Shown: in pieces, positions 8,535 to 61,420 of the stretch
Layout of the letters: every line of letters begins with the position of its first letter
Position numbering within the stretch: the stretch's first letter is position 1
Origin: a virus
Taxonomy: Duplodnaviria; Heunggongvirae; Uroviricota; Caudoviricetes
Virus record (IMG/VR): IMGVR_UViG_3300033463_000077
Direction: 5' to 3' (one strand)
DNA: 64,000 bases
Made by a program: the position numbers and the translations under genes
Notes under the pieces: model-generated
The model's database searches: none
Seen by the model: only the letters and a program-made list of their open reading frames with translations
What the model was told of the DNA's origin: nothing

Positions 8535-8576
8535 TTGTTGATATTAAAATATAACATATTGTCTGAAAAAGTAAAC
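8535..8576 (-). promoter_or_regulatory. conserved early promoter motif copy
   Basis: motif match. Confidence 0.6.
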
Positions 8577-8928
8577 ACAAAAAGAAGAGGATCAAGGGTA
8601 TCGAACCCCATGTAGAACTTGTTAGTTCCCGCCTGGCTCCGTGGACCTTGGAGGTGAGTCTGCTCGTATCATTCTCTTTCCATCCTTCATCCAGTCTTCA
8701 TATACGAGATGAAAACTTTCAAAAAGGTGTCCTTGAAGGGATCCTCATAAAAAGATCGGAGAGAACCTTCTCGCATATGGTCGAATCATTCCGCTCTCAT
8801 AAAATGGCGGACGTCACGGTCTCTAAACTCTGGCTTGAATAGAATCTCCAAAACCAACGGAGACATGCGATATTTTCTCTTAATCACCTTCCAGTGGCCA
8901 TTCCACCTACTCAGTGAAATCCGATCCA

Positions 8929-8964
8929 TATTTTAATATAACTTCTTGTCTGAAAAAGTAAACC
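8929..8964 (-). promoter_or_regulatory. conserved early promoter motif copy
   Basis: motif match. Confidence 0.55.
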
Positions 8965-25186: not shown

Positions 25187-25228
25187 ATCAAAATTTGTTT
25201 ACTTTCTTTGACTTTATGTTATATTCAA
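25187..25228 (+). promoter_or_regulatory. conserved promoter motif copy (orphan, plus orientation in switch region)
   Basis: GTTTACTTTCTTTGACTTTATGTTATATTCAAATAT. Confidence 0.55.
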
Positions 25229-25300
25229 ATATCAACCAATCGATCAAGGAGGAACTTCGATCGCTGCCGACCCAGAGGGGCGGGTAAAAGTGTCTTAAGA
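25229..25300 (+). ncRNA. orphan promoter-driven short element (repeat family R1 copy)
   Basis: promoter 25187-25228 then CAATCGATCAAGGAGGAACTTCGATCGCTGCCGACCCAGAGGGGCGGGTAAAAGTGTCTTAAGACTTGA, no start codon. Confidence 0.35.
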
Positions 25301-25329
25301 CTTGAATAAGAATTTTTTCACAAAGGGCG

Positions 25330-25370
25330 GTTTACTTTTTGACTCTTGGTGTTATATTATAATATCAACC
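25330..25370 (+). promoter_or_regulatory. conserved early promoter motif copy
   Basis: GGTTTACTTTTTGACTCTTGGTGTTATATTATAATAT. Confidence 0.6.
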
Positions 25371-25732: not shown

Positions 25733-25768
25733 ACCGATCCAAAAACTGGGAAGGAACCTCCTTCCTAG

Positions 25769-25808
25769 TTTACTTTTTGACATTTTCTGTTATATTTTAA
25801 TATCAACC
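25769..25808 (+). promoter_or_regulatory. conserved promoter motif copy (orphan)
   Basis: motif match. Confidence 0.55.
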
Positions 25809-25880
25809 AGAGAATCAAGGAGAACTTAATTCCTGTTTACCCAAAGGGGTGGGGAAAAGTGTCTTAAGACTTGATGTGAA
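25809..25880 (+). ncRNA. orphan promoter-driven short element (repeat family R1 copy)
   Basis: promoter 25769-25808 then AGAGAATCAAGGAGAACTTAATTCCTGTTTACCCAAAGGGGTGGGGAAAAGTGTCTTAAGACTTGA. Confidence 0.35.
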
Positions 25881-29755: not shown

Positions 29756-29782
29756 ATAAATTAAAATAAGGAGAATGTGACA

Positions 29783-30901
29783 ATGATTTTCAGAAAATAT
29801 AGTGAAATTGAAAATTCTTACAATTCCAAATTTGTGAAGGTGCTCAGAGAGCAAGGTTTTGCTGATCCTTCCATTGAATATGTTTGTGAAAATAAAATTG
29901 ATGGAAGCAATGTTCAGGTTTCTATTGATGAACATGGACATTTCAATTTTGGTTCTCGTTCTCAGTTTTATCCAGCTCATTCTGATTTCCAGGGATCTAA
30001 GGTTTGTTTTATTAAAGAAAGAATCAAAGACAAACTGATTAGAATGAAAGAACTCATTGCAAAGGATCAGAAAGTAATTGATATTTTGAATAAACTTGCC
30101 GGGATTGATCCTGAAAAAGAAGATATTCAGAAGAAATTTATTCTTACTGTTTATGGAGAACTTTGTGGCGGAATGTATCGTCACCCGGATGTGGAAAAGG
30201 TAAAAGGTGCAATTAAAATTCAGGGCAGAGTTGATTATCACCCTGATAATAAGTTTGTTCCCTTTGATATTGTTCTTCGCTGGCCAAATGGTTCCACTAT
30301 TATGTTGTTTGATCAGGATGAAGTTGTGAAATATTGTAAAGAAGTTGATCTTCCTTATCCGATCATTTTGTTTAGAGGCACCTTTGATGAATGTCTTGAA
30401 TTTCCTGTTGAATTTGTTGATAAAACTGGTAACATTCTTTGGGGTCTTCCGATTATTGAAAACAATATCTCCGAAGGTATTGTTATCAAACCTAATAAAG
30501 CCTTATTCAAAGGAAATAAAGAAAGAGTTATTCTGAAAAAGAAAGGTGAAAGATTCAAAGAACGTATTTCTAAGAATAAAGAACCTAAAGAGGTTTTACC
30601 GATGAATGATGTGGAAAAGAAGTGGTTTGATACTATTTCTGAATTCGTCACTGAATCCCGTCTGATGAGTGTTCTCAGTAAAATAGATTGTACAAAGCTA
30701 AATGATAAATGCTTTGGTATGATTCTTGGAGCCTTCCTTAAAGATCTTTGGAATGATTTCAATAAGGAATATGAACAGGATATTGAAAAAGAACTTTCTG
30801 AAAATTCTGATTTCAATTTTGACAAAGTGAGGAAGGAAGCATCCAAATATGTTTCCAAATTCATTCAGCCTCATTTCCTTAAGCTTATTGGAAGAGCTTA
30901 A
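29783..30901 (+). CDS. RNA ligase 2 family (T4 Rnl2-like nucleotidyltransferase)
   Basis: N-terminus MIFRKYSEIENSYNSKF matches T4 Rnl2 MFKKYSSLENHYNSKF; motif I ENKIDGSN (KxDGxN). Confidence 0.8.
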   Translation: MIFRKYSEIENSYNSKFVKVLREQGFADPSIEYVCENKIDGSNVQVSIDEHGHFNFGSRSQFYPAHSDFQGSKVCFIKERIKDKLIRMKELIAKDQKVIDILNKLAGIDPEKEDIQKKFILTVYGELCGGMYRHPDVEKVKGAIKIQGRVDYHPDNKFVPFDIVLRWPNGSTIMLFDQDEVVKYCKEVDLPYPIILFRGTFDECLEFPVEFVDKTGNILWGLPIIENNISEGIVIKPNKALFKGNKERVILKKKGERFKERISKNKEPKEVLPMNDVEKKWFDTISEFVTESRLMSVLSKIDCTKLNDKCFGMILGAFLKDLWNDFNKEYEQDIEKELSENSDFNFDKVRKEASKYVSKFIQPHFLKLIGRA

Positions 30902-34252: not shown

Positions 34253-34295
34253 TTTACTTTCACAATGAAGATGTTATAATATAAATATACAGAAT
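34253..34295 (+). promoter_or_regulatory. promoter motif copy (variant) driving intron-tRNA
   Basis: ATTTACTTTCACAATGAAGATGTTATAATATAAATATA. Confidence 0.5.
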
Positions 34296-34334
34296 GGAAT
34301 TTAATTATTCATTCTGATGCTAATTGAAAACATA

Positions 34335-34660
34335 TGGCCCCGTAACCGAATTGGCATAGGTACTTGACTGAGAATTCTTGGTAAAAGCAAGAATCACTGG
34401 GTCGCTAAATTGGAAACGATTTAGTAAGTAGATTCCCTAAAACGGTTAAACCTTTCAAAGAAATTTGATCGTGTAATCCCGTGCTAAATCAAAGAGTAAT
34501 CTTTGTAAATGTGTAGAGAGCAGAGAGGAATCACCTAAAAGCAGTAATGCTCATGGTTATAGTGTGCTCCAGACCACAAACTGATTATTATCAGGCATGG
34601 AAACATGTAGGGGTAAGCAAAATCAAGGTTTTACGGGTTCGACTCCCGTCGGGGCTACCA
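34335..34660 (+). tRNA. intron-containing tRNA (exons 34335-34368 and 34618-34660); spliced anticodon loop CUCAAAA (anticodon CAA, Leu-type) with Leu-like D-loop GAAUUGG but short variable loop
   Basis: manual fold: acceptor GGCCCCG/CGGGGCU, D ACC-GAAUUGGCAUA-GGU, anticodon stem CUUGA/UCAAG split by 249 nt, T ACGGG-UUCGACU-CCCGU, CCA encoded. Confidence 0.6.
34369..34617 (+). ncRNA. 249-nt group-I-like intron in tRNA anticodon loop
   Basis: insert follows U in 5' exon and ends with G; candidate IGS GGUC pairs with exon GACU (U-G at splice site); size typical of tRNA group I introns. Confidence 0.45.
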
Positions 34661-34671
34661 TTTTGATAATC

Positions 34672-34712
34672 AAACACTTTACATAGAAATGTGTAAAGTG
34701 TTTTCTTTTATA
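34672..34712 (+). terminator. rho-independent terminator after intron-tRNA
   Basis: ACACUUUACA-UAGAAAUG-UGUAAAGUGU + UUUCUUUUA. Confidence 0.55.
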
Positions 34713-34940
34713 TTAAAAAAATCTTTTAATTCTCTTAAAAAGAATTTATTATATAATATATAAACATTCAGATAAAAGCTTTGGTTGAGCTTCGAATGAT
34801 GTAATTATTTCGTTCTCCTTGGTAATTACATTTTCTGAATGTTTTTTTATTATAAAGCTTGAGCGGCTTCTTCGTTTAATTCTCTTATTATCATAATAGT
34901 TTAATCTCTTAAAATTGATCTTAAATATATTTATAAGTTG
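34710..34940. repeat. AT-rich non-coding region with nested inverted repeats and TTAAT(T)CTCTTA iterons; possible origin/regulatory region
   Basis: IR AACATTCAGA/TCTGAATGTT, inner IR ATGTAATTA/TAATTACAT, AAGCTT palindromes, three TTAATCTCTTA-like repeats. Confidence 0.4.
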
Positions 34941-35407: not shown

Positions 35408-35521
35408 TGGATCTTGCTGGAGCGGCTGTTCTAATTTTTTGTACGCCATTAGGTTGGATTGGTATTATGGCATTTGGCTTTTCAATGTCAATGATTATTG
35501 AAGCTTGGAAAAGAAAGTAAG
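35408..35521 (+). CDS. small membrane peptide (37 aa)
   Basis: hand-found ORF MDLAGAAVLIFCTPLGWIGIMAFGFSMSMIIEAWKRK, RBS GAGGAGGATTAAAA. Confidence 0.35.
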
Positions 35522-35558
35522 TTTACTTTTCAAAAAGTAATGTTATATTAAAATATAA
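35521..35558 (+). promoter_or_regulatory. conserved promoter motif copy driving ncRNA unit
   Basis: motif match. Confidence 0.6.
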
Positions 35559-36002
35559 TCGGAAAACAAAATCCGATGCTGATTGAAAAATTTTATGACG
35601 TAGTAGCCCAAGGAGAGGCAGCGGCTCAGACGCCGCCAAAGTATTGGTTATACTCCAATCTACGTCCCCAATTTACGTTATCCGATGGACAGATTGGTTT
35701 AAGTTGATCTTGAGAATTAGTTTAAGAGTGAAAACATCCTACTGGATTTAGGAAAATGCATGGTGCAAGGTCCGGCATTCTCAGTTGCGTCAAGATAGGC
35801 AAATGGTCAGCCTAAGACGAGATTAATTTTAATCAATTTTCCAACGTTGTTAGAAGTCTGCAATAGTTTAACTAAAACAGTCGGACGGGATCCGATGATT
35901 CAGATCAGATTGCAACGAATTCTGATTGCAGTTACTTAGGTTTTCTTGAATGACCAATCAGGAATCCAAACAACAATGGATTACATCACCTTTTTTTTTT
36001 TC
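35559..36002 (+). ncRNA. ORF-free transcription unit (~440 nt), GCUGAUUGAAAA-leader ncRNA family member
   Basis: motif promoter 35521-35558, no ORF of 60 aa or longer, hairpin + T12 terminator at 35962-36002, long-range complementarity GACGUAG/CUACGUC. Confidence 0.45.
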
Positions 36003-36012
36003 CGAAAAAGAG

Positions 36013-36050
36013 TTTACTTTTTCAAGAATGAAGTTATATTAAAATATAAT
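36013..36050 (+). promoter_or_regulatory. conserved promoter motif copy driving large ncRNA unit
   Basis: motif match. Confidence 0.6.
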
Positions 36051-36960
36051 CGGAAAACAAAATCCGATGCTGATTGAAAATTGAAAATTTCAGGTTGGTT
36101 ATAAAAATACCGATGTGATGCAAAAGATTAGCTACTTGAGAGACTGTCAGCTCAAAACAGTGGGAGACATCCTGAGATCATATCAATGGTGGTGTTGGTT
36201 AAAGTCCAATCATTGGTTCTTGTTATATTATAATCAATCCCGGAGAACTTCATCGTAAATATCCGGCAAGGTAAACCTTGAAAATGTTGAAAACGGTATT
36301 GAAATTAGATTGGTTATTGAAAAATAATCAAATCCCGGAGAACTTCATCGTAAATATCCGGCAATTGTTCAGCGATTGAAATGTTAAAAACGGTTAAGCC
36401 TGGAAATCAAAACCGGGCGATTCAATCGCCATTAAATGTGGCGATAGCTATCAGAGAACTGGAAGGTGTTTCGGTGAGATCACTGATCCTAAGGAAATGA
36501 ATAGTGGCAGATAGAAGGTTATATTGATTGATTTACTTCTTCTGTTGGAAGCAGCAAAATCCGTTGTAAGAGCGGTGCCTAGATAATCACAGAGATGATT
36601 ATCTAATTATTTAAAATTAAAATCAATCGAGGCAGTTGAGGAAATATAGATTCTGTCTCCCGGCTCTGATTGAGTCTGAAACTAAAGACCTCATAGATGA
36701 GGGTGATGTATTCAGCCGATGAAAAATCCGGTTAGGAGTCGCTGCAGAACTCCAAAACCTCACTTCAGAAGGAAACTGAAGGATCCGACATCCGGAAAAC
36801 AAACCAAATATTAATGAGCAGTGAAAAGGACTCCAACCTTCATCTGTTGACCGTGGATTACCTGGAAGCGGTCAGTCCTCTTGGAGCTTTTATTATGAGG
36901 ATTCGATTTACGGGGATGATTAAAGCCGAATGGGATTCCATCGGCCTTTTTCATTTTATA
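36051..36960 (+). ncRNA. large ORF-free transcription unit (~900 nt), GCUGAUUGAAAA-leader family; candidate large structured (ornate) RNA
   Basis: motif promoter 36013-36050, same leader as 35559, two 34-bp direct repeats, many local hairpins, no convincing ORF (track ORF 36814..36999 has no RBS and ends inside promoter). Confidence 0.4.
36236..36373 (+). repeat. two 34-bp direct repeats (AATCCCGGAGAACTTCATCGTAAATATCCGGCAA) ~104 bp apart inside large ncRNA region
   Basis: seen directly; each can form CCGGA..UCCGG hairpin. Confidence 0.65.
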
Positions 36961-36961
36961 G

Positions 36962-36999
36962 GTTTACTTTTTGAATTCAGCTGTTATATTAAAATATAA
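36962..36999 (+). promoter_or_regulatory. conserved early promoter motif copy
   Basis: motif match. Confidence 0.6.
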
Positions 37000-37024
37000 A
37001 GAAAGCATCAAAAGGAGAATTAAA

Positions 37025-37870
37025 ATGAAATATCTTATTCTTTCTGATTTACATATCTCTGTTGACTCTGTTACTTCTCAATTCAAACTTGAAAAATACA
37101 AAAGAATTTTAAAGAACAATTTACCTGAGAGTTATGATATCGTTCTTATTTCAGGTGATGTATTTGAACACAGAGTTCCACATTATGTAAATGTTTTTGA
37201 AACTCTGCAATACTTTTTTGATTTCAAACCGGCTGTTTTTTGTTTAGGGAATCATGAATTTGCTTATGAAGATCATGATTCTGTATTGAAAACTTACAAA
37301 GCTCAATATGAAGTTTTCAAGTCAAAATGGCCTAATGGATCGGTTTGTTGTCTTGATATTTCAGGATATTATGATTTTGATAATGCCAGAATTGTTGGAA
37401 ATGTATTTTGGTATGATTGGTCTTTAAATCATTGCAGAACTTTAATGAAAGGTGAAATTGTTGATGGTTGGTTGGATGCAACTATTGAAAATTTCGATGC
37501 AATGAAAGAACATGAAAATTGTAAAAAACAAATCATGAATTCTCTTTCTGAAGAGAAGAATCATATTCTTTTGACTCACACTGTTCCTTATGAAAAGTTG
37601 AATATGTTTAGTATTGAAGAACCAAATTCTCCATACAATTCTTATTCAGGGTGTGCGGACTTTTTGAATGAGATCAAAGATAAAAACTTTAAGTTTGCAT
37701 TTTGTGGTCATACTCATAAAAAAGCAAATTTAGAAGTATATGATATCAATTGTTTGAACATTGGAAATGATTATTATTTCAAAACATTCAGAATTGATTG
37801 GGCGCTTTTTGATATGGACAAAGATTTGAATATTTTTAATATTCTATTCAGTAAACAGTTTACTTTTTGA
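37025..37870 (+). CDS. calcineurin-like metallophosphoesterase
   Basis: MPP motifs DLH, ISGDVFEH (GDxxD), GNHE, LLTHTVPY, CGHTHKK; start MKYLIL after RBS AAAAGGAGAATTAAA. Confidence 0.7.
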   Translation: MKYLILSDLHISVDSVTSQFKLEKYKRILKNNLPESYDIVLISGDVFEHRVPHYVNVFETLQYFFDFKPAVFCLGNHEFAYEDHDSVLKTYKAQYEVFKSKWPNGSVCCLDISGYYDFDNARIVGNVFWYDWSLNHCRTLMKGEIVDGWLDATIENFDAMKEHENCKKQIMNSLSEEKNHILLTHTVPYEKLNMFSIEEPNSPYNSYSGCADFLNEIKDKNFKFAFCGHTHKKANLEVYDINCLNIGNDYYFKTFRIDWALFDMDKDLNIFNILFSKQFTF

Positions 37871-48232: not shown

Positions 48233-48275
48233 GTTTACTTTTAAAGAAAGGAAATTATATTAAAAATAGAAGATG
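48233..48275 (+). promoter_or_regulatory. promoter motif copy (variant) driving ORF-free unit
   Basis: GGTTTACTTTTAAAGAAAGGAAATTATATTAAAAATA. Confidence 0.45.
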
Positions 48276-48632
48276 AGGTATGGAAACCACTGTTGGTAAC
48301 AGGCCAGATTCTAAATCTTCTATAACGGAATCGGAAATTTAAAACAGAATTTATTCACCGAGTAGTCCGCCTAGTAGAAGTGTTAGCGCAAACACAACAA
48401 ACGGCAATAAAGAAAATTCTGTGGTGCACCAAATAAAAAATTAAGATCAAAGGATCGGACCCAGCTAAGTCACGAGACAAACGGTGGTGTCGAATAAGTT
48501 GGATAATGAAAATTCCAATGCCTTTCTGAGCTATTTCAGTTTTGGCGATTAGGTGGGGTAGATTGGCCCCAGAAATCAGGAGACCTTGAAGTTCGAATTT
48601 TATCAAGGTCTCCTTATTATTTTTTATAGAAA
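48276..48632 (+). ncRNA. ORF-free transcription unit (~350 nt) between variant promoter and strong terminator
   Basis: variant motif promoter 48233-48275; no plausible plus ORF; terminator AGGAGACCUUGA..UCAAGGUCUCCU + U-run at 48577-48632. Confidence 0.4.
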
Positions 48633-55052: not shown

Positions 55053-55382
55053 ATGGGAATGTCAGCTGAAAATGATAATGTGAGTTTTGCAGAACAGCAG
55101 GAAAATTTGAAGCGAGAGGCTGCAAGAAAGGCCGCGGAGAAGAAAGTTCCGTGTTATTCAGTTCTTGGTTCCATTTATTTGAAAGACAAATGTTATCAGC
55201 TTCTTGTTGGTGAAGATAAGAAGTGGTATAAAGCTGAATGGCTGAGAAGTGAAAGAATTGATGAAAAGAATCGTTCTCCGCTGGTTGATGTTTATTCAGA
55301 TGAAATCACTCCACTTACTAAAGAAGAATTTGATTATTATTTTCATGGGAAAGATGTTGTAAAAAAGAAAAAGAAGGGTTAA
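55053..55382 (+). CDS. hypothetical protein (109 aa)
   Basis: ORF, RBS GAAGGAGAAAATAAATT. Confidence 0.5.
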   Translation: MGMSAENDNVSFAEQQENLKREAARKAAEKKVPCYSVLGSIYLKDKCYQLLVGEDKKWYKAEWLRSERIDEKNRSPLVDVYSDEITPLTKEEFDYYFHGKDVVKKKKKG

Positions 55383-55399
55383 AATTATAAATATACAAG

Positions 55400-55730
55400 A
55401 AGAGAAATCTTCGTGCTGATTGAAAACTGTTTATTGGTTATTTTGTAATTGAAATTGTTATCCTATAACAGATACCAATTTTAGATGTTCTCAATTTTCC
55501 ATACTTTGCAAATACCGGAAGATGAGCCTTAAAGCAAAGGTTTCCTAAAGTTGGGTAAAAGGTTTCCCTCGGTTTTGAAAATCGGGTAAAGCTAGCAAAT
55601 TTTGAAATATTTGTTATAGATGAGCACCTCTTAATCGCGGAGAACAAATTAGGAGTTTTTATTTTGTCCTATTATCCTCACTGATGAACAGTTTTCCGGT
55701 CCCAGTTGATTGCAACACTGGGACTTTTTT
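55400..55730 (+). ncRNA. ORF-free transcription unit (~320 nt), GCUGAUUGAAAA-leader family
   Basis: leader motif at 55414-55425; no ORF; terminator GGUCCCAGU..ACUGGGAC + U6 at 55698-55730. Confidence 0.4.
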
Positions 55731-55808: not shown

Positions 55809-56345
55809 ATGCAGATTTATTTCAAAAGCAAAGATGGATTTGTTGATGAGCCTTTTAGCTTCAGCAAATACGGAAACAAAAAATTTCAAGTTGTTGGAGA
55901 TCATTACAACACTGGAACAAATCGCTTTGGATATGAAGCGGTAAAGCAGGCGAATGAAGAGAGCGGATTGGATGTTCTGCTTTTAAATGATAAATCTGAA
56001 GTATTCATAATTAAATTTCTTGACATTCAGAAGTTCCTTTATGAACAGAAAAAGGCAAGGAAGGAACAGGAAAAGAAACAGAAAGCTTCTCAGCAAAAAC
56101 TGAAAGAAATTAAATTTCATATGAATATTGCTGAGAATGATTTGAAGACCAAAGTTGAACATGTCAAAAAGTTTCTTGAAGAAAATTGCAAAGTTAAAGT
56201 TGTTCTTGAACTTCGTGGAAGAGAAGTTGGAATGAAAGATTATGCAAAAGAAGTTTGGGAAAATATAATTTCAAATTTTGCTGAATATCAAATCAGTGAA
56301 AAGAAAGAAATGGGAAATTCATATTTTGTGTTTATCACGAAGTAA
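55809..56345 (+). CDS. translation initiation factor IF-3 homologue (full length, 178 aa)
   Basis: C-domain KEIKFHMNIAENDLKTKVEHVKKFLEENCKVKVVLELRGREVGMKDYAKEV aligns with bacterial IF3 [51 protein letters not shown]; N-domain LDVLLLNDKSEVFIIKFLDIQKFLYEQKK resembles [29 protein letters not shown]. Confidence 0.65.
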   Translation: MQIYFKSKDGFVDEPFSFSKYGNKKFQVVGDHYNTGTNRFGYEAVKQANEESGLDVLLLNDKSEVFIIKFLDIQKFLYEQKKARKEQEKKQKASQQKLKEIKFHMNIAENDLKTKVEHVKKFLEENCKVKVVLELRGREVGMKDYAKEVWENIISNFAEYQISEKKEMGNSYFVFITK

Positions 56346-56873: not shown

Positions 56874-58106
56874 ATGTTTAGAAACTTTGTTAAAGAATAT
56901 TTGAATGAACCTGGAAAAAACCTTGATACTCTAAAAGAAGAGTTTGGTATTTCTTATCGTATTTTCAATGCAAAGAATGGAGATCTTGTCATTCTTTCTT
57001 ATTCTCAGATTGATTCTCCAAAAACCAATCCGATCGTTAGGATGTGTCGTGGATTGGTTCTTGAGATGAATACTTGGGACATTGTTTCCTATCCTTTTTA
57101 TCGTTTTTACAATTTTGAAGAAGTTCCAGAAGAACGTCTGAAATTCAATTGGAAGAAAGCAATGGCTACTGAAAAAATTGATGGTTCATTGCTGGAAGTC
57201 TTTAATTACAAAGGTGAATGGCTTATTTCCACCCGTTCAATGATCGGTGGAGAAAATGCAGTTAATGCTTTGGGTACTACGGTTAATGATATTTTTGATA
57301 TGGCAATTTCTCCAATGACTCGTAAGGAATTCTTTGAAAGACTTATTCCAAATATTTCTTATATTTTTGAAATTGTCAGTCCTTTCAATCAAATCGTTAC
57401 TCAGTGGGATGCCGCTCATCTTTATTTGATTGGTGGAAGAAGCAAAACTTTTAATGAAGAAGAATATACTTTTATCGATCTTTATGATTTGTTTGATTCT
57501 GCAATGAAAAACATTGTTAGAATTCCTAAAGTCATTTCTCTTTATGATAAAGAATCTGATGACTTTGTTGGATTTGAAAAAATGAAGATGCTTGCGGAAA
57601 CTGGAAATTCTCAGGATGAAGGTTTTGTTGTGGTGGATTTTGACAGTCTTGATAAAACTACCAATTCCTTTCCGAGAGTGAAAGTTAAAAATTCTGCTTA
57701 TGTTGCTCTTCATCATTTGAGAGGTTCTTTGGAGAATGGAGCTCCGCAATATGAAAGAATTCTTACTTTGATTTACAATAAAGAAGATGCAGAAGTTCTT
57801 TCTAATCTTCCTCATATGAAGCCTTACTTTGATGAAGTCAAAGAAAAGTTTAATAAATTCCTTGAAGAGTTTAATTCTGATTTGAAATTGATTGAAGCTG
57901 AATTGAATGATCCTCAGAAATTTATTGATCATCCTGAATTGAAGAAAGATTTTGCAATGAAGATCAAAGATTCAAAATATAAGAATTTGTTTTTCTTCAT
58001 GCTGAAGTCTTGTACCAAAACTTTCAATGAAATGGTTGATTATCAGATCAGCAAGTCAGTTGATGTTTTTGATAAACTTTGGGACTCTTATATTTCCAAG
58101 ATGTAA
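56874..58106 (+). CDS. RNA ligase 1 family (T4 Rnl1/RnlA-like)
   Basis: SYRIFNAKNGDLVILSYSQ..RMCRGLVLE..YRFYNFEE..EKIDGSL aligns with T4 Rnl1 TYRIFSYNYASYSDW..ECRGIMFE..MEKFFNLNE..TKEDGSL (motif I KxDGSL). Confidence 0.75.
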   Translation: MFRNFVKEYLNEPGKNLDTLKEEFGISYRIFNAKNGDLVILSYSQIDSPKTNPIVRMCRGLVLEMNTWDIVSYPFYRFYNFEEVPEERLKFNWKKAMATEKIDGSLLEVFNYKGEWLISTRSMIGGENAVNALGTTVNDIFDMAISPMTRKEFFERLIPNISYIFEIVSPFNQIVTQWDAAHLYLIGGRSKTFNEEEYTFIDLYDLFDSAMKNIVRIPKVISLYDKESDDFVGFEKMKMLAETGNSQDEGFVVVDFDSLDKTTNSFPRVKVKNSAYVALHHLRGSLENGAPQYERILTLIYNKEDAEVLSNLPHMKPYFDEVKEKFNKFLEEFNSDLKLIEAELNDPQKFIDHPELKKDFAMKIKDSKYKNLFFFMLKSCTKTFNEMVDYQISKSVDVFDKLWDSYISKM

Positions 58107-58145
58107 GTTTACATTTATTCAAAAAGTGTTATATTAAAATATACT
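58107..58145 (+). promoter_or_regulatory. promoter motif copy (variant) driving ncRNA + tRNA-Lys
   Basis: GTTTACATTTATTCAAAAAGTGTTATATTAAAATAT. Confidence 0.5.
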
Positions 58146-58430
58146 GATGGAAGATCGGTAGCTGATTGAAAATTTAATTGTTGTAAAAAGCTACAGTCAC
58201 ATGCGTGAAGGCCAGAAGCAAGGGCGAGATTGGAACACCGTAAAGCATGGATGATTGAGAAGAGACAGTGGACAGTTGCAAGTCAAGACCTCATTACAAC
58301 TAAGTACGGTCATGAGGAAAATCCACCGTGGTAGGCAACTAGTGGGTGGTAATGTGGAGGTAAGATTCCAAAGTCTTATGTCCAACGGAAGACGTCGAAA
58401 TCTTAGTTGACAACAATTAATTTTTTAGAT
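58146..58430 (+). ncRNA. ORF-free leader/ncRNA (~280 nt) with GCUGAUUGAAAA motif, co-transcribed with tRNA-Lys
   Basis: variant promoter 58107-58145; no ORF; runs directly into tRNA-Lys. Confidence 0.4.
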
Positions 58431-58507
58431 GGGGCCATAACTCAGTTGGCTAGAGTAGCATCCTTTTAAGATGCGAGTCGGCGGTTCGAATCCGCCTGGC
58501 CCCACCA
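58431..58507 (+). tRNA. tRNA-Lys (anticodon TTT)
   Basis: manual cloverleaf: acceptor GGGGCCA/UGGCCCC, anticodon stem GCAUC/GAUGC, loop CUUUUAA, T GGCGG-UUCGAAU-CCGCC, CCA encoded. Confidence 0.8.
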
Positions 58508-58517
58508 TTTTAATTTT

Positions 58518-58567
58518 AAGCGGGTGTAGCATAGTGGTTTATGTCCTGTCACCCGCTTCATTTTTAG
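58518..58567 (+). terminator. terminator hairpin after tRNA-Lys; stem-loop resembles acceptor stem + D-arm of a tRNA (tRNA remnant?)
   Basis: AAGCGGGUG-UAGCAUAGUGGUUUAUGUCCUGU-CACCCGCUU + CAUUUUUAG. Confidence 0.5.
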
Positions 58568-59249: not shown

Positions 59250-59290
59250 AAGTTTACATGAAGAAAAAACGAGTTAAAATATAAATATAA
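59250..59290 (+). promoter_or_regulatory. promoter motif copy (variant) driving ncRNA unit
   Basis: partial motif match. Confidence 0.45.
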
Positions 59291-59745
59291 AGAAAGATGC
59301 TGATTGAAAAATTTTAATCTCAGAGTTGAGGGATTGCAGTTTGCTTAATCATTTGTTTCCTTTCTTTCATTTGGTTATTATGCGGTATGAATTGCAAAGC
59401 TGAGGGTAATTCTGGAAAGCTTCCTTTTGGAGGGATTAGGCGGCGGATTAAAAAATGAAATCAGGAGTCATCCTCCTGGACGTTTAATGCGATTGAACGG
59501 ACACGATATGGAGAATCAAAGCGCAAGGTGTAAGCAAGAAGATGCACCTCCTACTTATTGGGAAATATAAGGGGTTATAAAAAGGTCATTCCAAATCTTC
59601 ATTTAAAGGGAGTTTGTAAATGTTAAAGTTGTTCTTCCTATTAAGTATGGGTATACACATATAAAACAACGTTGACCACCGCGGTGAAATTTGGGTGTCA
59701 AAGTAACCGTGGTTAGAAACCGAACACCCATTTTTTGTCACTAGA
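59291..59745 (+). ncRNA. ORF-free transcription unit (~450 nt), GCUGAUUGAAAA-leader family
   Basis: variant promoter 59250-59290; leader motif 59300-59311; no ORF; terminator GGGUGUC..ACACCC + U6 at 59693-59745. Confidence 0.4.
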
Positions 59746-61286: not shown

Positions 61287-61325
61287 TTTTAACGGTTTAC
61301 TTTTTGAATTCAAGTGTTATATTAA
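61287..61325 (+). promoter_or_regulatory. conserved promoter motif copy (orphan, drives R1 element)
   Basis: motif match. Confidence 0.55.
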
Positions 61326-61420
61326 AATATCAACCAGAGAATCAAAGAGAACCTTTAATTCCTGTTTACCCAAAGGGGTGGGGAAAAGTGTTTACATAAA
61401 ACTATTAGTTTTTTGAATTA
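61326..61420 (+). ncRNA. orphan promoter-driven short element (repeat family R1 copy) with mini-terminator
   Basis: promoter 61287-61325; ..CCTGTTTACCCAAAGGGGTGGGGAAAAGTGT..; AAAACUAUUAGUUUUUUG hairpin. Confidence 0.35.

Follow-up and report, generated by a model that had tools for sequence, protein, structure and literature searches.

Large structured RNAs of phages, such as GOLLD and ROOL, lie next to transfer RNA (tRNA) genes, and in the tRNA cluster of phage T4 stable small RNAs of no known function (species 1 and 2) are co-transcribed with the tRNAs. The ribosomal RNA (rrn) operons of bacteria carry the signals boxB, boxA and boxC, in this 5′ to 3′ order, just past the P2 promoter and again upstream of the 23S gene, with boxA being necessary and sufficient and boxB dispensable; the order is opposite to that in the nut site of phage lambda (PMC10250234, PMC8632103). 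The boxA element also protects long non-coding CRISPR transcripts from the termination factor Rho; from one phylum to another, the boxA consensus is subject to drift (PMC7665894). Here, we analyse a 64,000-nucleotide (nt) stretch of DNA from a virus of the class Caudoviricetes (IMG/VR record IMGVR_UViG_3300033463_000077), called the window below, in which a number of units, among them U1 and U2 at positions 35,559 to 36,960, have promoters of their own and are free of open reading frames (ORFs). Their leader, a hairpin followed by the 12-nt motif GCTGATTGAAAA, matches the P2 leader of rrn operons of the Lentisphaeria in sequence, order and spacing.

A hairpin and then UGCUGAUUGAAAA is reminiscent of the order boxB-boxA in the leaders of rRNA operons. 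To test this likeness, exact copies of GCTGATTGAAAA were sought 56-116 nt upstream of the conserved 5′ end of the 16S gene, in one genome per species for 185,579 species. The scan returned 17 loci, all 17 of which belong to Lentisphaerota (Lentisphaeria, Victivallaceae, Victivallis) from the ruminant or human gut; no other phylum is represented. In these operons the promoter has the form TTGACA or TTGCAA, a spacer of 17 nt and then TGnTATATTAAG, and the hairpin follows some 8 nt further on. It stands 0-2 nt before the motif in all of the 16 distinct leaders, with a sequence that varies between genomes. The motif itself is found 20-42 nt after the first −10-like hexamer (16 leaders), or 20-31 nt after a −10 of the TGnTATATT type in 15 of the 16. 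Right behind the motif comes TTGAATAGTGCGATGT, and since the exact complement of this segment, ACATCGCACTATTCAA, occurs just downstream of the 16S gene, TTGAATAGTGCGATGT can be assigned to the helix between 16S leader and trailer, as its leader strand. The 16S-23S spacer contains a hairpin with GTTGATGAAAAA before tRNA-Ala, and a hairpin with either GTTGATTGACAA or GCTGTTTGACAA before the 23S gene. The host operons thus agree with the arrangement published for the rrn antitermination signals (PMC10250234, PMC8632103). The motif match indicates that the phage host is probably a member of the Lentisphaeria (Victivallales), and the rumen or gut origin common to the phage contigs and to the metagenome-assembled genomes of Lentisphaeria is consistent with this.

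In the phage units the −10 is TGTTATATT, and about eight different hairpin sequences stand 0-2 nt before the motif. The gap between the −10 and the motif is 16-45 nt, as counted by a script that took a hexamer further upstream as its starting point in a few of the units. For comparison, related contigs were gathered through the flanking RNA ligase and metallophosphatase, together with one pattern scan of JGI metagenomes; they come from ENA, Logan and JGI assemblies only and are labelled L003, L029, L051 and so on. IMG/VR yielded no relatives when scanned with the promoter-plus-motif pattern or with two flanking proteins. In L050 and L051, one motif copy lies about 160 nt downstream of the −10, compared to the 16-45 nt seen elsewhere. 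The motif variants of the relatives (GTTGTTTGAAAA, GTTGATTGAAAA) fall within the variants that the host has in its own leaders and spacers. Units of the U2 type share a further TTGAA(T) with the host, which gives up to 17 identical bases (GCTGATTGAAAATTGAAT in L031). In U2 and its relatives this is the only host-shared sequence past boxA, and in the host it belongs to the leader strand of the 16S stem. The RNA bodies of the units show neither similarity nor antisense complementarity to the host rrn loci.

Within the window, exact GCTGATTGAAAA occurs five times, always on the plus strand (35578, 36069, 55415, 58161 and 59299), and a one-base variant, GCTAATTGAAAA, is found at 34319-34330, before an intron-containing tRNA. 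When up to one mismatch is allowed there are eight matches, a number reached by none of 100 shuffled sequences; the remaining two (40073 and 41886) are inside genes. A preliminary description of this DNA had listed the same motif copies, which are real, at start positions that turn out to be 1-2 nt off, and had put the variant 13 nt from the tRNA at 34336, where the gap is 5 nt. It had also stated that every unit starts with a hairpin and then the motif. Five units do start with the exact motif, and a hairpin ends 0-2 nt 5′ of the motif in five of six units in the window, but the unit called U59 has no hairpin and the one called U48 has no motif.

A conserved promoter of about 40 nt, GTTTACTTTTTGAATTCnnnTGTTATATTnnAATAT, is present in about 90-100 copies in the window, and most of these are followed by a strong Shine-Dalgarno sequence within 15-40 nt and then by a short ORF. 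Among 91 consensus promoters, the four that bear the motif all lack an ORF, compared to 13 of the 87 motif-free ones (p=9e-4). The consensus promoter is used by the units at 34253, 35522, 36013 and 58108; the two motif units with a weaker variant promoter (55357 and 59253) are likewise ORF-free.

The view that the units are promoter-driven, untranslated and structured, put forward in the preliminary description, is supported. The promoter scan finds their promoters, and no stop-free frame crosses any unit, whether all three stop codons are read as in the standard code or one of them (TGA, TAG or TAA) is reassigned. In five related contigs, independent gene callers, those of the source databases, left the homologous intervals empty. 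An 83-codon ORF on the minus strand of U48 (48355-48606) shows 13/13/13 substitutions by codon position as well as frame-breaking indels.

The units are called real structured RNAs because compensatory base changes are found in the relatives, the alignments comprising 3-9 sequences per family. For the U1 core (35681-36001; four sequences), 18 of 90 predicted pairs are compensatory, compared to 0-4 in slid controls, with the changes coming mostly from one lineage split; 97% of the cells are paired, and the copy in the window is ca 67% identical to those of three close relatives. The 3′ domain of U2 (36811-36913; nine sequences) has 24 pairs, eight of them (23 cells) compensatory, with slid controls of again 0-4, and the 5′ domain of U2 has four compensatory pairs out of 33 predicted (eight sequences). 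The corresponding numbers are nine out of 74 for U58 and seven out of 84 for U59, with four sequences each, and four out of 82 for U55, with three. Most units have minimum-free-energy z-scores of −2.4 to −3.1, while that of U59, +0.6, is not significant; since one coding control gave −3.3, as low as the units, these scores are treated as uninformative. Pairing of the 5′ end with the remainder of its unit gave duplex energies that were not significant against shuffles, and the helices that close the RNAs (see below) rest on position and covariation instead. Judged from the aligned sequences, the units are genuine structured non-coding RNAs that belong to no curated family, with compensatory changes in at least four of them.

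As to the family, none of the units matches a model of Rfam 15 at the gathering score or at E<=5-10, and over 20 related loci the only Rfam matches are tRNAs. The candidates named earlier, GOLLD, ROOL, HEARO, raiA, 6S, RNase P and transfer-messenger RNA (tmRNA), are thereby not supported, and the OLE and group I/II intron models give no match at the same thresholds. The other suggestion, of one undescribed RNA family, fails as well, because beyond the leader of ca 40 nt the bodies are mutually dissimilar.

The order of elements in a unit is a sigma-70-type promoter, a variable hairpin in the boxB position, the invariant GCUGAUUGAAAA in the boxA position, and finally a hairpin and T-run. The best explanation of these data is that the units are independent early transcription units, each built like a miniature host rRNA operon, the products of which would be tRNAs, tRNA-like modules and large structured RNAs of 260-880 nt. 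We consider it likely that the leader is a phage copy of the boxB-boxA antitermination signal of the host rrn operons and that it recruits Nus factors. In this mechanism, the host NusB-NusE(S10) would bind the boxA in the nascent GCUGAUUGAAAA, and NusA, NusG, SuhB and S4 would assemble on the RNA polymerase to form the rrn transcription antitermination complex (rrnTAC), such that the long ribosome-free transcripts would be shielded from Rho-dependent termination. The 5′ leader would be held at the RNA exit channel, and the closing helix could form once its 3′ strand emerges. Transcription would then end at the hairpin and T-run, and the RNAs would probably be trimmed by tRNA- or rRNA-processing nucleases.

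In a published model, the nut-like element at the 5′ end is retained by the rrn complex where the RNA leaves the polymerase, and is handed over from there to its downstream complement (PMC8632103). In at least three of the phage families, the 5′ strand of a helix closing the whole RNA comes directly after the element in the boxA position. The helices start 0-1 nt (U55, U58) or 3 nt (U1 homologs) after the motif, which is the place that the 16S leader strand has in the host. For U55 and U58, the partner strand is the extreme 3′ end of the RNA. RNAs built in this way would profit from such a delivery. A more tentative idea, which we regard as less probable than not, is that the bodies (the U1 core, U2, U55, U58, U59 and several more families of the relatives) are new classes of large stand-alone functional RNAs, "mini-rRNAs" made with the transcription and chaperone complex that the host uses for rRNA. 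Their closing helices, embedded tRNA-like modules, repeated hairpins and kissing loops would be folded by the rrnTAC during transcription, and the RNAs would serve the takeover of the host, perhaps by diverting defences aimed at tRNA or rRNA, as decoys, or by providing scaffolds for ribonucleoproteins (RNPs) or multimers.

It is important to point out that several observations weigh against the antitermination assignment. The motif agrees with the gamma-proteobacterial boxA consensus GYTCTTTAANA in 8 of 11 positions, the mismatches being at positions 4, 5 and 8, the first of which matters for function in E. coli (PMC5725501). The boxA consensus is reported to drift with phylogenetic distance (PMC7665894, PMC5725501). 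The host motif, in turn, would be a boxA by virtue of its position, its repetition in the spacer and its similarity. Furthermore, the motif is missing from three other units without an ORF, namely 48270-48625, the minus-strand unit 8560-8934 and the tRNA-Asn/Pro leader, and the element is therefore not obligatory for an untranslated RNA. How a modified polymerase would stop at the intrinsic-type terminators of the units is also a difficulty for the model. Finally, the 3′ half of the motif is able to pair with trailer sequence in the host, U55 and U58. This pairing is at the center of the main rival explanation, namely that the leader serves RNA processing. As a cleavage or recognition site of RNase III, RNase E or a nuclease of the phage, it would set free the structured RNAs and tRNAs, and it would be conserved in the host pre-rRNA likewise. 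In the host, the usual substrate of RNase III, the 16S leader-trailer helix, is immediately adjacent to the motif, GAUUGAA of the motif region can pair with UUCAAUC of the trailer, and in U55 and U58 the closing helix can be lengthened by the GAAAA end of the motif. A helix requires complementarity and not a fixed sequence, however, and the 12-mer is invariant although the trailers of the units differ. In addition, the motif is found before tRNA arrays that have no closing helix, the hairpin and motif copies in the host spacer are separate from the processing stems, and the place right past the promoter is that of a boxA. A processing signal is for these reasons judged unlikely. Of the two functions proposed earlier, a processing or a recognition site, it is thus recognition that is retained, in the form of a copied rrn hairpin and boxA-position element, with Nus antitermination favoured over processing.

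Another option is that the motif binds some other factor, such as ribosomal protein S1, another host protein or a phage-encoded RNA-binding protein, for stabilisation, localisation or RNP assembly and not for antitermination. An affinity of S1 for boxA has been reported (PMC8632103), and the phage region encodes many small proteins of no known function. The exact identity with the host rrn leader suggests instead that the factor is one of the host and works on transcripts of rRNA; elements at this position have an established reader in NusB-NusE, and no phage protein is linked to the motif, which makes this option rather improbable. The possibility that the units are hidden protein-coding genes, with recoded stops or small peptides, or known large RNAs such as GOLLD or ROOL, draws on the suppressor tRNAs of some related large phages (e.g. 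the tRNA(CTA) in L062) and on the location next to tRNAs. It requires, however, an open frame where none appears under any single-stop reassignment, it is at odds with the lack of codon periodicity in the substitutions, with the frame-breaking indels and with the numerous compensatory pairs, and for GOLLD and ROOL there is no Rfam match at permissive E-values. We consider it very improbable.

The putative antitermination leader can also be compared to the described systems one by one. With the rrn leader and spacer site, where the rrnTAC consists of NusA/B/E/G, SuhB and S4, the units have in common the promoter, the hairpin, the linear boxA and the strand of a closing helix, as well as an untranslated, highly structured transcript, and the phage 12-mer is identical to the host rrn leader element. 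The differences are that the leader is phage-encoded, that it heads 0.3-0.9 kb units of tRNAs or novel RNAs and not rRNA, that no clear boxC is seen, and that the units end in hairpin and T-run terminators. The boxA of CRISPR arrays and of suhB is likewise an rrn boxA reused outside rRNA against Rho, and is also recognised by its similarity to the rrn boxA of the same species (PMC7665894, PMC5725501). Those are chromosomal loci of the host, whereas here a virus copies the host signal several times per genome. As in the lambda nut site with its N protein, a boxA and a hairpin in a phage transcript are predicted to recruit host Nus factors. In lambda, however, boxA precedes boxB, while in the phage units the hairpin comes first, as in rrn; moreover, the hairpin sequence is variable and the targets are non-coding RNAs and not delayed-early mRNAs (PMC8632103). 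The variability of the hairpin makes a reader like N unlikely, and a lambda-type nut site was rejected on account of this and of the reversed order.

Like GOLLD and ROOL, the units are large ORF-free structured phage RNAs beside tRNA genes, and the repeated hairpin modules and candidate kissing loop of U2 are reminiscent of these families; unlike them, they match no Rfam model and are different from and unrelated to one another. The T4 tRNA cluster is similar in that stable RNAs accompany the phage tRNAs, and T4-type RNA ligases 1 and 2 are found nearby in the window. We know of no boxA leader in that cluster, and the sizes and sequences of its RNAs are unrelated to those of the present units.

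We now turn our attention to the individual units, all of which are on the plus strand. The tRNA unit has a promoter at 34253-34280 (TTTACT-16-TATAAT with TG), a leader hairpin in the boxB position at 34290-34316 (read from the sequence), and the variant boxA-like element GCTAATTGAAAA at 34319-34330, for which the L051 and L029 homologs have GCTGATTGAAAA and GTTGATTGAAAA. It is followed by a tRNA with anticodon CAA (34336-34660), called by ARAGORN in intron mode with a 248-nt intron after position 35, and by an intrinsic terminator at 34672-34709. The 248-nt insertion does not match the Rfam group I intron model, and the homologs in L029 and L051, which are headed by the same leader, are intronless. 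A tRNA with a large intron was also tried for the remaining units and rejected, as ARAGORN in intron mode calls only 34336. The association of the units with tRNAs, noted previously, is thus borne out, while the clean intrinsic terminators claimed for most of them are only partly so: a simple scan calls the one at 34672 alone, and the other ends are hairpins and T-runs with a bulge or a large loop. After the tRNA terminator, 34710-34940 is AT-rich and ORF-free and contains a long inverted repeat, CATTCAGA...TCTGAATG, and this region is 82-85% conserved in L050 and L051.

U1 starts with a promoter at 35522-35549, a leader hairpin in the boxB position, ATCGGA-N8-TCCGAT, at 35558-35577, and the boxA-like element GCTGATTGAAAA at 35578-35589; its 40-nt leader is identical to that of U2. 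Next comes a tRNA-like cloverleaf at 35597-35670, for which ARAGORN gives a 7-bp acceptor stem, an encoded CCA and an abnormal anticodon loop of 8 nt with a 4-base anticodon (CAGA). It does not match the Rfam tRNA model at E<=10, and it has neither the 7-nt anticodon loop nor the score of a tRNA. According to the alignment, this cloverleaf is present between the boxA element and the U1 core in this phage only and is missing from the U1 homologs. The core RNA itself spans ca 320 nt, 35681-36001, and ends in a T-run. In L050 and L051, the U1-homologous region has a tRNA-Pro(GGG)-like cloverleaf inside a 19-bp helix, and a 5-bp closing helix starts 3 nt after the motif.

For U2, the promoter is at 36013-36040, the hairpin in the boxB position at 36049-36068, and the boxA-like element GCTGATTGAAAA at 36069-36080, with the next bases, TTGAA, also matching the host leader. 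The RNA body covers 36081-36921 according to an alignment of 7-9 homologs. Its 5′ domain (36110-36216) and its 3′ domain (36811-36913) are conserved, and between them are two 34-nt hairpin modules, whose loop is conserved, and a middle part that varies. Within the 3′ domain, 6 bp (CUCCAA/UUGGAG) are a candidate for a kissing-loop or pseudoknot interaction, in which one A-U to G-C switch is seen. The two modules are exact direct repeats (36236-36269 and 36331-36364), as had been described before. A terminator-like hairpin with one bulge and then a T-run is read from the sequence at 36922-36951, where the simple scan misses it. RNase P RNA was considered for U2, as GGUUAAAGUCC is suggestive of it, and rejected since there is no P4 partner in the window sequence and no Rfam match.

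The weak variant promoter of U55 (TTGTAA-17-TAAAAT; 55357-55385) overlaps the end of the upstream gene. The leader hairpin is at 55396-55414, in the boxB position, the boxA-like element GCTGATTGAAAA at 55415-55426, and the RNA body at 55427-55691. A 12-bp closing helix (55427-55438 with 55679-55691) starts right after boxA and contains two compensatory pairs, and the terminator at 55698-55730 has an 8-bp GC-rich stem, a 10-nt loop and a T-run. U58 has its promoter at 58108-58135, a hairpin in the boxB position at 58144-58160 that is kept in the relatives with other sequences, the boxA-like element GCTGATTGAAAA at 58161-58172, and the RNA body at 58173-58430. Its closing helix of 11 bp pairs 58174-58184 with 58410-58420 and begins at a distance of 1 nt from boxA. 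A tRNA-Lys(UUU) at 58431-58507 is predicted to be co-transcribed, and a terminator-like 9-bp stem with a large loop and then a T-run follows at 58518-58565. In L008 (2581-2808) and L009 (4882-5109), whose RNA ligase is 92% identical, the tRNA-Lys after U58 is split by an insertion of ca 226 nt, and a DUF559/MTES_1575 endonuclease-like gene follows the split tRNA; the window has no such gene.

U59 has a variant promoter (TTTACA-16-TAAAAT; 59253-59280) and the boxA-like element GCTGATTGAAAA at 59299-59310 without a hairpin on its 5′ side, and the L003 homolog has GTTGTTTGAAAA at this place. Its RNA body, including the terminator (59693-59736), covers 59311-59736. The last unit, U48 (48234-48625), has a variant promoter, a conserved ORF-free RNA of ca 310 nt and a terminator at 48578-48625, and is without the boxA element.

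The same leader is found in front of other RNAs in the relatives. In L059 it heads a 225-nt RNA followed by tRNA-Met and tRNA-Tyr, and in L027-type contigs, L030 and L040 it heads several more unrelated RNAs, the L027-type units having no hairpin before the motif. When the 17-mer was scanned against IMG/VR, it was found in two unrelated contigs of 441 kb and 90 kb, with a GC content of 27-28% in the fetched stretches. In one of the two it stands directly before at least eight tRNAs, and in the other ca 100 nt upstream of an array of 11 tRNAs and a tmRNA spanning 2 kb. The common denominator of these cargoes is long, untranslated, structured RNA, the type of transcript for which protection from Rho by boxA has been shown with CRISPR arrays (PMC7665894). 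The 441-kb contig also has a tRNA with anticodon CTA, an amber suppressor (L062, 3690-3764), which hints at a reassignment of TAG in that phage. In L005 (15354-15620) and also L007, with an RNA ligase that is 70% identical, a promoter, a long hairpin and UGUGUUCUCUAAAAAA precede tRNA-Leu and tRNA-Gln; the latter sequence is a different boxA-like one and may point to a different host.

Two other promoter-driven ORF-free elements of the window have no boxA. One, of ca 375 nt, is on the minus strand at 8560-8934 and has at its 3′ end GGGGTTCGATACCC and then a strand complementary to the 5′ end. This end resembles the tRNA-like domain of tmRNA or a split tRNA, and the unit is called by neither ARAGORN nor Rfam. 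Another, at 20934-21127 on the minus strand, is a leader RNA of ca 190 nt upstream of tRNA-Asn and tRNA-Pro. In addition, a small promoter-driven ORF-free element occurs four times, at 25195-25335, 25766-25880 and 61293-61400 on the plus strand and at 1600-1712 on the minus strand. It has the transcript start AUCAACCA, a variable hairpin and then CCCARAGGGG(Y)GGG AAAAGUGU, and could represent either a family of small RNAs or a leader with a regulatory role.

The window has a GC content of 36% and at least eight tRNAs, and its genes include T4-type RNA ligases 1 and 2, a NAD-dependent DNA ligase, Pol X, a metallophosphatase and an IF3 homolog. The RNA units are interspersed with the RNA ligases 2 and 1, the metallophosphatase and the IF3 homolog (29777-30901, 37025-37870, 55809-56345 and 56874-58106). 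A KTI12/AAA_33 kinase, a HAD phosphatase and tRNA_lig_CPD are additional in the relatives, and this set of ligase, phosphatase and kinase genes looks like a full tRNA-repair toolkit. The GTTTACTTTTTGAATTCnnnTGTTATATTnnAATAT promoters point leftward up to ca 28,100 and rightward from ca 25,200. Near-identical promoters are thus divergent around 25-28 kb, and almost every small gene has a promoter of its own, which is unusually dense. The DNA of 35500-37000 has no similar sequence among 50,697 known phages, and the protein relatives of the window are on metagenomic contigs of up to 335-360 kb. The source element is most likely a large or huge phage, which we infer, as there are no structural genes within the 64-kb window.

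The use of boxA and Nus factors is already known for rRNA, lambda-type phages and CRISPR arrays, and what appears from these comparisons to be new is the use of a host rrn-type leader by a phage. We found no report in the literature of a phage that has copied such a leader, with hairpin and boxA, multiple times for tRNA and non-coding RNA units, and a literature string search on boxA-like sequences gave nothing relevant. If the proposed mechanism is correct, it would explain how large phages manage, in hosts with Rho, to make long transcripts that carry no ribosomes. It would also define the boxA of a poorly studied phylum, the Lentisphaerota, for which, to our knowledge, few phages have been described, and would permit the prediction of a host from sequence only, here from Lentisphaerota, by matching phage leaders to the rrn boxA of the host. 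Finally, the combination of a phage promoter and a host boxA would constitute a search handle for new phage non-coding RNAs, one that yields some ten unrelated RNA families already.

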